Assembly: GCA_963693365.1 (NCBI GenBank)
Contig: CAVNZM010000003.1
Coordinates: 12,373,651-12,437,650 of the forward strand
Origin: Amoebidium appalachense
Taxonomy: Eukaryota > Protista > Ichthyosporea
Direction: 5' to 3'
Length of the DNA stretch: 64,000 nt
Below the pieces are notes generated by a model. It saw nothing but the letters and a program-made list of their open reading frames with translations. It was not told where the DNA came from and searched no databases. The translations under genes and the position numbers were made by a program. Shown piece after piece: positions 23,301-26,300 of this stretch. Position 1 is the first letter of the stretch; each line of letters opens with the position of its first letter.

Positions 23301-26300
23301 TTGTCTAATATCTGACGATTCTGCAGCATCCCTAAGACCCCCTCCCCCTCCCCCCTCCCCCCCCCCTCCCCCCCCCCCCCCCCACCTTCTCTCTCTCTCT
23401 CTCTCTCTCTCTCCTCTCTCTCTCCCTCTCTCTCTCTCTCTCTCTCTCTCTCTCTCTCTCTCTCTCTCTCTCTCTCTCTCTCTCTCTCTCTCTCTCTCTC
23501 TCTCTCTCTCTCTCTCTCTCTCTCTCTCTCTCTCTCTCTCTCTCTCTCTCTCTCTCTCTCTCTCTCTCTCTCTCTCTTTCTCTTCTTTCTTTTTTTTTTT
23601 TTTTTTTTTTTTTTTTTTTTTTTTTTTTGGCGCCTGTTGTTTTGCTTGTCATTTGTTGTTCTGGTTGATTACCTGTAATCTTCGCTTATTTATGTGTGTG
23701 TGTGTGTGTGTGTGTGTGTGTGTATGTTGTGCGGGGTTGCACATACCGGTGTCTACTTTTCTTCTTACTGTTTTTCTCTCCACACACTTCATCTGTCCAC
23801 TTCTGCATACCCCCTTTCATAGCTATAGACACACTTCACACATTGCGTTACGCGCACGCATGCACACACCGCTCTGTTGGCGACAGCTCCCTTGGAACCC
23901 ATGCGGCATGTTACCCGCCGGCGTAACATAACTCGGACTATCGGTTTGGCTTTTTTCAAGCCCAAAGCAATGGGTGATACCATATTTCCGGCTGACATCC
24001 GGGGGCATAGCTTTCCGTTCGAAGACGATAAAGTTCCGCCCTAGTAAGCGTGTTACTACCCTGCGGCGTGGGTCAAATCTCATATTTTCCCCTCTGATTA
24101 CGAATTCTGCGGCCTTCGGGACTTAATTCTTTTCAGCTGGTGTAGTATGTTAGCCAGGGAAGTATCGACTTAGGTATCGACGGGGGAGCTTCCTAGAAGC
24201 CCCGTCTCCTGAGTTCCTATCTATATTTTTCTTGCTTCTGCTTACTGCTGCAACTTTAACCCCCGGCCTTTCCCACTGCCCTTGCCTGCATAAGCAACCC
24301 TGCTCGTCTCTGATCAAGACGGGTGACCTACTCATGTTCAAGTGAAACAGTATCTGAGTTGGGTTTCGTTAACGAGGGGAATAGGTCGAAACTCGGGTAC
24401 TGTGGATGACGTGGGCCCCCCCTGAGGATGGGCTCTGCTTATTATGCATACTCTTTATGTATGGCTTGCATTCTGCATCGTGTTATCCGTTTGTTCTTGT
24501 GTACTTCGTACTTTTTAACGCATTCAAAACCCCCCTCCCCTCCCCCCCCCCCCTCCCCTCCTCCCCTCCCACCCCTAACACGACTAACCAACAATGAACT
24601 ACGATGTCGTGCTCTCCCCCCACTTCCATAAACGGGCATGGTTGCTCTGTGTCGTGCTCTGTGTCGTGCATCTGTAAGCACATACGCATTTTTCGCTGCA
24701 CTGCATTAGTTTGCACACACATCTTCACCGTCTTGCTCACCTTGCTTGCATAAGCAACCCTGCTCGTCTTTGATCAAGACGGGTTGACCCTCCCAAGTTC
24801 AGTTGATGCTGCTGTCTGAGTTGGAGAGTCGTATATACGCGGGCTGAGGGGTCGAAACTCAGACGCAATTGATGACTTGGGCCCTCCCTGAGGATGGGCT
24901 CTGCTTATGACGCATACTGTGCGCATGGCTGATGTTGCATACTTGAATGTTTGCCTTTGCATGTGTCCTTCGTGTATGCGTACTTCGTACCGTGTTCCGC
25001 ATTCAAACCCCCCCCTCCCCCCCCTCCCCCCTCCACCCCCTCCCCCCCCCCCCCCCCCCCCCCCCTGCACACCCAGGTGATCATCCACCACTATAGTGGT
25101 GACTTTGAGATGAAATTTCCTGACGTCACCTCCGGGTTTGCTTTGAGCCGTGCCCTTGTTCTGGGTAACAAGCCGCCCCTCCTCCTTCCCCCTCCTCCCC
25201 CTCCCCCCCCCCCCCCCCCCCCCCCCCCCCCTCCCCCCCTCCCCCCTCCCCCTCCCCCCCCGAAAAACAGGTGGTTGCCATAAATGATGAATACTCTTCA
25301 TGTCTTCCCCCCCCCCCTCCCCCGCCTACCCCCCCCCCTCCCCCCCGCCCGCCCGCTCCCTTTTCCTCCCTCCCTTCCCCGCCCTTCCCCCCCCCCTCCC
25401 CCCCCCCCCCCCCCCCCCCCATCCTCCAAATCGTGTGTACAGGTCCTGCCCCTGTTTCTTTTTTTTTCTTTCTTTTTTTTTTTGTTTGTTTGTTTGTTTT
25501 TTTTGTTTAGTTTTTTAATGCCGTTCTTCGTGTAACCGGGTTTACCACTCCTTTTGTGCTTTTCTTCCATCTGCCTTTTGTCTTTTTACAGTTTAAAGGT
25601 TTTTTCCTTTTTTTTTTTTCCATTGCTTTTTTTTTTTTTTTTTTTTTTTTTTCCCCCTGTTCCCCCCCCCCCCCCACCCCCACCCCCTATTATGCATACT
25701 CTTTATGTATGGCTTGCATTCTGCATCGTGTTATCCGTTTGTTCTTGTGTACTTCGTATTTTTTGACGCATTTAAACCCCCCTCCCCCCCCCTCATTTGC
25801 GCTGCTGTTTGCCAAACATGTCTTTATGTTGGTGCCTGATGTTATGACATCAAGTTTATGATACACGTACGCCAAAAATTCAACGATGGGGTTCGCCTAT
25901 TATCTATGTTGCAGCGTACAATATCGTTTAGCAGAAATGCATCATCGCCATATAAAAAAACCAAAGGAGGAATGCCAAGCTAGTGGTTAAAGGGGGGGTT
26001 TCTTTTGGGCCGATTCATAGTCCCTTTCGGGTCAGGCCAAACTGCTGTTTGATGCACATCTCTCCAATCATGATGTATAAATCTCTTTCGGGTCTGACCC
26101 GAACCGGAATCCTAAAAGAAACTTCCTTTAATTCTAGAAATTTTCACCAGGCATGGGTGAGGCTTTGGCGGAAAACCGAAAGTATGAATTCAACATTGAC
26201 CCTGCACATGAACTGGCTAAGTGGCTGTTACAGGTGTGTGTGTGTGTGTGTGTGTGTGTGTGTGTGTGTGCGTGCGTGTGTGCGGGTGTGCGTGCGTGCG

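Follow-up and report, generated by a model that had tools for sequence, protein, structure and literature searches.

What kind of RNA has been preserved in a high-copy, non-coding repeat whose two diverged subfamilies, A and B, lie side by side in a eukaryotic genome, and what does this RNA do? In the window, the 64 kb stretch of DNA that was analysed, a first-pass annotation had placed the repeat at 24282..25010 and had likened it to no known RNA family; the repeat does lie there, while its unit is larger than had been quoted, at ~452 nt. In this repeat, the conserved unpaired letters make up a complete hammerhead core (GUU, C-GAAA-C and CUGAGGA), and the fold is very probably derived from a hammerhead ribozyme. 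The reading favoured here, to which we give a probability of about 0.58, is that of a non-circularly permuted hammerhead with a split block C, carried by a retrozyme-like element.

The repeat family and its copies

The window is eukaryotic DNA with abundant microsatellites and poly-C and poly-G runs and with short exons, such as the two of a Fringe-like glycosyltransferase at 28385-28579 (+) and 32337-32573 (+). It also holds an uninterrupted ORF at 39255-39869 (-) with a tRNA-editing (YbaK/ProX) domain, 55-63% identical to its best 120 hits; the named hits are bacterial, and horizontal transfer into a eukaryote is possible. Two further repeats are a MITE-like inverted repeat (52591-52752 and 52967-53128; 162 nt, 86% identical) and a diverged tandem repeat of ~85-nt period at 26764-27122.

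Three full cores and 17 nhmmer pieces of the family occur within the 64 kb (Table 1); for the analysis of flanks the pieces became 15, with 37705-37730 (E 0.17) dropped, two merged, and the starts of A and B extended by hand. The cores of A and B are 466 nt apart, yet the two copies are separate insertions, and no locus with two cores of the same subfamily one unit apart was seen in the window, where the sole head-to-tail locus, B', consists of 1.24 units with one core and a terminal direct repeat of 107 nt (97% identity). Copies are clustered (11999-12432, 24231-25008, 57498-58690 and 61083-61336), newer ones lying inside the C-run of older ones. The dropped piece at 37705-37730 (-) is a lone block C match outside any C-run, with CUGAUGA at 37724 (N7 = U) and GAAAC ahead of it, and without a fitting S block.

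Table 1. Coordinates of the repeat copies and of the predicted core features in the window
Feature	Position	Strand	Remark
Copy A (subfamily A)	24231..24529	+	5'-truncated; 3' end at C-run
A: P1 closing helix, 5' strands	24290-96, 24298-300	+	
A: hairpin P2	24302-24	+	palindromic UGAUCA loop; part of inserted domain 24290..24324
A: detached stem II 5' strand	24325-30	+	G10.1 = 24325; GACCU + one letter
A: I-II interaction strand, upstream half	24331-37	+	right after stem II strand
A: block S	24348..24363	+	stem III 5' strand, GUU 24358-60, stem I 5' strand
A: predicted cut	between 24360 and 24361	+	
A: linker hairpin, stem I to stem II	24364..24381	+	palindromic loop
A: block G	24382..24402	+	stem II 3' strand, C11.1, GAAA 24388-91, stem III 3' strand
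A: interaction strand, stem I 3' strand, CUGAGGA	24409..24442	+	interaction strand 24409-15; CUGAGGA 24422-28
A: extra U, then P1 3' strands	within 24409..24442	+	extra U 24429
Stem I	A 24361-63/24419-21; B 24823-26/24884-87	+	
Copy B (subfamily B)	24623..25008	+	C-runs at start and end
B: core overall	24749..24909	+	P1/P2 24749-84; stem II 5' strand 24786-91
B: interaction helix	24792-98/24875-81	+	
B: core letters and predicted cut	GUU 24820-22; GAAA 24854-57; CUGAGGA 24888-94	+	predicted cut 24822/24823
Copy B'	57498..58057	-	1.24 head-to-tail units, period 452; full core
B': core	G12 at 57667	-	predicted cut 57699/57698
5'-truncated B copy	12236..12432	+	blocks G + C, without S
Older 3' fragment	11999..12109	+	begins at block C; CUGAGGA intact
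Older 3' fragment	21444..21558	+	amid C-runs; CGGAUGA near 21450 (N7 = U, U4 changed)
Older 3' fragment	27227..27361	+	CUGAUGA at 27236 (N7 = U)
3' tail fragment of A	25687..25777	+	amid C-runs
Other tail fragments	12165, 13149, 30836	+	
Other tail fragments	58497, 58690, 61140, 61336	-	

Contigs from public runs of five studies were placed on the region (X1, X3, X4, X10, X12 and X18), any of which may be, or share, the source of the window. An X10 contig is identical over 24268-24462, and the X12 contig aligns to 24231-24524 of copy A and carries 70 more letters 5'. In X1, the summed depth is ~1.2-1.8 million, as against 13-57 for single diverged pieces; taken with the three full cores and 17 pieces in 64 kb, this points to thousands to tens of thousands of copies, depth itself being no copy number. 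X18, which is guessed to be RNA, has contigs of both subfamilies and was counted neither way for expression. A contig joint at 24389-24399 in X1, X3 and X4 inserts a short telomere-like TAGGGT repeat into copy A.

A complete predicted hammerhead core

In both subfamilies, block S carries U16.1 (24359 in A, 24821 in B), block G reads C11.1-GAAA-C (G12 at 24388 and 24854), and block C reads CC-CUGAGGA (C3 at 24422 and 24888). All of C3 U4 G5 A6 N7 G8 A9, G12 A13 A14 A15.1 and U16.1 H17 are present in A, B and B', pairs 1.1-2.1 and 15.1-16.1 are formed, and stems I and III flank the cut site. The triplet GUU is allowed but not the best, and U17 is able to pair with A14; H17 = U is permitted by the hammerhead consensus (PMC3088659), and PMC1636495 held no passage on GUU. 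Between A and B, the core is identical at 13 of 13 positions, versus 61 of 96 other columns (Fisher P 0.0045), and in the variable middle alone at 7 of 7 versus 45 of 78 (P 0.027). At the free position N7, A and B both have G and older fragments have U; some other fragments have decayed at core positions.

A strict descriptor, with lengths near those observed, matched only the three family cores in the window and none of 100,000 shuffles per copy (0 of 200,000 in all); a loose one, in which the blocks may come in any order and stem II may find its partner at any position, matched 19 and 23 of 20,000 shuffles and two unrelated places in the window. The descriptor was drawn up after the sequence had been seen. 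Rfam gave no hit in the window at gathering score and, in E-value mode, four weak hits, none meaningful alone, among them a partial Hammerhead_1 match (E 8.3, 14.2 bits versus a gathering score of 34) that spans GACC...GGUCGAAAC. The earlier view that the RNA matches no known family thus stands as far as Rfam goes, while the fold itself reads as a rearranged hammerhead and not as a new class: the repeat is hammerhead-like in every feature testable here, yet lies outside the Rfam hammerhead families and strict type SGC. Comparison of motifs by eye led us to drop twister, twister-sister, pistol, hatchet, HDV-like, hairpin and VS ribozymes as well as RNase P, none of which came from Rfam. An upstream CUGAUCA/UUGAUCA loop was also considered as block C and set aside, as it has C at position 8, is paired into P2, and does not keep C3 in B.

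Exact-pattern scans for relatives, which may miss distant ones, gave 113, 51 and 59 hits in viral contigs, 0 and 28 in metagenomes and 1 in prokaryote genomes. Among these 252 loci, none fitted the strict descriptor, none was an intact SGC, and two fitted loosely with implausible spacing.

Conservation of pairing between the subfamilies

The helices described by the first-pass annotation for both subfamilies were recovered, all eight strands being found where it had placed them, and its outer stem, closing helix and P2 hairpin can be read from the sequence and are paired. Its inner stem also pairs, except that the last pair, U24360-A24390, is U17-A14 of the hammerhead core and should be open. 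The proposed pseudoknot (GACCTA/TAGGTC versus GACCCT/GGGGTC) is a real helix whose sixth pair is not kept in B: position 24791 is a one-letter spacer that varies freely in B, with A at 34% and G at 28% of the summed depth in X1. The crossing helix stem I and the CUGAGGA block had been overlooked.

In an alignment of A, B and B', a 40-pair model pairs in 120 of 120 cells with four two-sided changes, versus 27-51% for slid controls, and 10 of 500 shuffles attain these values. Stems I to III, together with the outer stem, keep 24 of 24 pairs in both subfamilies; with stem I aligned by its helix, five of them differ on both sides and three on one side. The fifth two-sided change falls on the third stem I pair, which is G-C in A and A-U in B, and a MAFFT gap hides it. 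Stem I has 3 bp in A and 4 bp in B, stem III has 8-12 bp, and the 7-bp interaction helix shows one two-sided and one one-sided change. G-U alternates with Watson-Crick pairs on the plus strand only. P1 and P2 are nearly invariant, so that their pairing has no covariation support, and only two independent sequences stand behind the alignment, which is below R-scape grade; this conservation is support for the predicted fold, not proof. The suggestion of selection on a plus-strand RNA fold is supported. Among the functions that had been offered for it, the self-cleaving ribozyme gains support, nothing was found in favour of a guide scaffold, and a replication or packaging signal survives only as a minor rival, weighed below.

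Variation among the public-run contigs bears on single pairs. The stem II pair 24329/24383 changes from U-A to C-G at 2.8-4.2% and 3.1-4.1% in X1, X3 and X4 (levels taken per position), and 24332 changes U-G to C-G at 35-44%, while 24415 G>C, at 1.6-3.5%, breaks one interaction pair. No variant of at least 1% is listed at G10.1, C11.1, GAAA, U16.1, U17, G5, A6, N7, G8 or A9; C3 and U4 vary at 1.2-2.3% (X3, X4). One contig represents a third subfamily that keeps GGUC-GAAA-C with a different stem III strand.

Self-complementary hairpin loops are found in both subfamilies, UGAUCA in each, with GUUAAC in A and GUAUAUAC in B (24310-24316, 24367-24374, 24770-24777 and 24830-24839), and kissing or dimers are conceivable.

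Block order and the proposed split of block C

In A and B, the blocks run S, G, C from 5' to 3' with crossing stems, and the strong, covarying 5' strand of stem II (U-GACC) sits upstream of S, apart from CUGAnGA; a weaker candidate strand comes after CUGAnGA and a 2-nt insert. The segment U, GACC(C/U), one letter and 7-nt interaction strand has an SGC-like make-up and SGC-like partners, but lies 5' of S. CUGAGGA-U continues into the closing helix P1, hairpin P2 leads to G10.1, and the P1/P2 domain thus fills the gap between CUGAnGA and the stem II strand. We suggest that the RNA would fold as a type-SGC hammerhead whose old ends have been joined and which has been opened anew between A9 and G10.1, where there is an extra U; the P1/P2 domain would keep the two halves together at the place where a single bulged U is found in type-SGC.

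In type-SGC, as far as the available text of Eckert et al. 2023 goes, the strand that precedes stem I is joined by a helix to the one that follows stem II (PMC10085705). The SGC-1 oligos given there, read by eye, run CUGAUGA, U, 5-bp stem II, one letter and interaction strand, and the published SGC descriptors in that text also include the extra U after A9. The geometry of A and B parallels this SGC-1 layout, in that a stem II of 5 bp is followed by a single letter and the interaction helix, and A9 by the extra U. The descriptor in the same text keeps block C in one piece and its linkers short (0-8 and 0-15 nt), neither of which holds for A and B; in its one-U register there is a G x G at the third pair, and the linker hairpin is ~18-21 nt. 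According to the portions available, inserts between A9 and G10.1 never exceed one or two letters and blocks are assumed uninterruptible (PMC10085705). In CChMVd, one letter is tolerated there, with U raising the rate 3-4-fold (partial text of PMC3705267), and in the pseudoknot hammerhead A9-G12 and G10.1-C11.1 stay adjacent (partial text of PMC11300833). Variants that carry further helices are referred to in a paper of 2026, which names Weinberg 2015, Eckert 2023 and Forgia 2023 as its sources; PMC10162972 yielded no passage about such helices. Neither a split hammerhead nor a whole domain between A9 and G10.1 had a precedent in the literature searched, which consisted of texts without figures and had Weinberg et al. 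2015 and Hammann et al. 2012 outside its scope.

Which fold is active

Unconstrained single-sequence folds are only mildly better than shuffles (z -1.23 in A, -2.06 in B; minus strand -1.10 and -1.91), and they pair the core away, recovering neither the split nor an intact fold. P1, P2, stem III and the interaction helix reappear in the minimum-energy fold once the strands of stems I and II are left free (-50.8 and -55.9 versus -54.6 and -63.3); the energy sum that beats the unconstrained folds omits pseudoknot penalties. Cleavage at the predicted site is likely, and the chances that the split form is the active one are about even.

A different assignment, which we regard as unlikely, is that an ordinary type-SGC hammerhead, its C block intact (CUGAGGA with 1-2 extra letters), is the active form; its G-U-rich stem II would use 24430-36 or 24896-902, while the upstream GACC and interaction strands would form an off-switch or a distal stem II only. 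In its favour, the segment after CUGAGGA can pair with both partner strands (4 and 6 bp in A, 6 and 5 bp in B), CUGAGGAUG and CGAAA fit the SGC descriptor in the published text available, N7 excepted, and an off fold is needed for circles. This stem II pairing needs a 2-nt insert after CUGAGGA, and its stacking is 4-7 kcal/mol worse (-6.1/-9.7 versus -11.3/-13.3 kcal/mol for the upstream strands), with P1 having to break as well. Its helices show no two-sided change, and pairs are lost between A and B; moreover, the upstream strand is transcribed first and would win over the downstream one, and it does not block the core letters, which stay free. The downstream pairing may be left over from an intact ancestor, or it may itself be the form that is active, and a hybrid fold that takes two core pairs from block C is possible.

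That the hammerhead-derived fold no longer cleaves, and is kept as a recognition or packaging signal for a partner reverse transcriptase, seems quite improbable. The triplet is weak, stem I short and the core split, and most genomic copies retain sequence on both sides of the cut at similar depth; copies that span the cut are, however, expected from circles or tandems, and whereas N7 and the spacers change, none of the 13 core letters does so between A and B, the third-subfamily fragment likewise keeping GGUC-GAAA-C. Least probable is a likeness to hammerheads by chance, with the element being a DNA transposon (MITE or Helitron-like) or an unrelated structured RNA. Rfam finds nothing significant and the loose descriptor has background matches, but the strict descriptor has none in 200,000 shuffles, and the confinement of G-U/Watson-Crick alternation to the plus strand also speaks against chance. 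As for a DNA transposon, no terminal inverted repeats were noticed, and fixed 3' ends, ragged 5' ends and head-to-tail redundancy fit reverse transcription.

Mobile element and proposed life cycle

The frames tested across the carrier of the putative split, permuted hammerhead gave no Pfam family. In the window, a scan of 84 of the 342 unmasked frames gave no reverse transcriptase family, and no autonomous partner was found. ARAGORN found 0 tRNA genes in the window and hence no tRNA-like head of a tRNA-derived SINE, and there is no CUGAnGA on the minus strand of the 452-nt unit that would indicate a paired opposite-strand hammerhead.

The flanks are tied to poly-C. At least 12 C in 20 letters are found 3' of 13 of the 15 pieces and 10 of the 15 are C-rich in the 20 letters 5', where none is G-rich (background 8.5%); part of the 3' C-run belongs to the element itself, so that of the two counts the 5' one is independent. 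The C-run of stem I is where many fragments begin, and the linker past the C-run recurs at the loose ends of 29 contigs in X1 and of 1 contig in X12. These features fit target-primed reverse transcription from a genomic G-run with microhomology at the 5' join. In the proposed cycle, the plus strand would cleave itself after GUU, likely releasing ~452-nt units; in transcripts of tandem units, each unit would be cut one time, and the monomers may, like those of retrozymes, be closed into circles by ligation. A nicked genomic G-run would then pair with the internal C-run of the element and prime reverse transcription by an autonomous partner, which would yield fixed 3' ends, variable 5' ends and occasional copies of more than one unit. 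The circular intermediate falls somewhat short of even odds, and the combined proposal, that an active four-stranded hammerhead with a structured domain set between A9 and G10.1 would drive a circular retrozyme of very high copy number that homes to poly-C/poly-G runs, is put forward more tentatively still.

The 452-nt circle is no more stable than shuffles (z -0.74). In this folded circle, the 5' arm of B can pair over ~16 bp with the 5' strand of P1 (57778-57870 (-) and 24645-24765 (+)), a possible off conformation. A possible last exon (AG acceptor, short open frame, stop) lies at 23960-24046 (+), ~190 nt before copy A, and could place the ribozyme in a sense 3' UTR.

Implications and comparison with known systems

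The six hammerhead permutations of the current scheme follow from three blocks assumed to be indivisible, and a split block C, if active, would break this rule. If this reading is true, present descriptors and covariance models miss a natural hammerhead class, engineers gain an insertion point beside the active site, and a non-circular permutation so far reported from metatranscriptome contigs enters a eukaryotic genome as a mass-amplified mobile element. The subfamilies of the repeat supply natural covariation. Under the alternative with an intact core, the locus would instead offer a built-in strand-displacement switch on a type-SGC ribozyme.

Among the ribozymes compared, type-SGC (HRIMA-1), as described in the accessible text of PMC10085705, shares with A and B the S-G-C order, stems I-III, the I-II interaction helix, G10.1-C11.1 and the extra U after A9. 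Unlike it, A and B have their stem II and interaction strands 5' of S, a P1/P2 domain that separates CUGAnGA, a hairpin in place of the 3-nt linker, and joined old 5' and 3' ends; they use a GUU triplet and measure 160 nt, whereas type-SGC reaches at most 104. They also lie in a eukaryotic genomic repeat, while the type-SGC examples of that text are from assembled metatranscriptomes. Another point of comparison is the pseudoknot hammerhead with helix IV, which likewise has an extra helix and a pseudoknot beside the core (Zhan et al. 2024, PMC11300833), and the CChMVd (+) hammerhead with A10, in which an insert after A9 is tolerated (PMC3705267); in the parts of both texts at hand, unlike here, A9 joins G10.1 directly or via one letter.

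As a mobile element, the repeat resembles retrozymes, which the available texts describe as non-coding hammerhead repeats whose monomers are expressed in linear and circular form and which Penelope-like elements probably mobilise (PMC7229834; bioRxiv 10.64898/2026.07.22.740005; PMC11167929). Like the animal non-LTR retrozymes, in the portions available (Cervera and de la Pena 2020, PMC7229834; Li et al.), it is non-coding, high-copy and hammerhead-bearing, with a unit of a few hundred bases and head-to-tail arrangement. Those elements carry type I hammerheads in 170-400-nt units, often in long tandems (partial texts of PMC7229834 and bioRxiv 10.64898/2026.07.22.740005), unlike the repeat here, which is ~452 nt, mostly dispersed and truncated, tied to poly-C, and non-circular in block order. 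Penelope-like pLTR elements, as far as the texts of PMC6765202 and PMC11167929 were available, share its partial-tandem copies and terminal redundancy and are a candidate source of reverse transcriptase; the repeat differs from them in having no ORF, and their hammerheads, in the same texts, are minimal type I.
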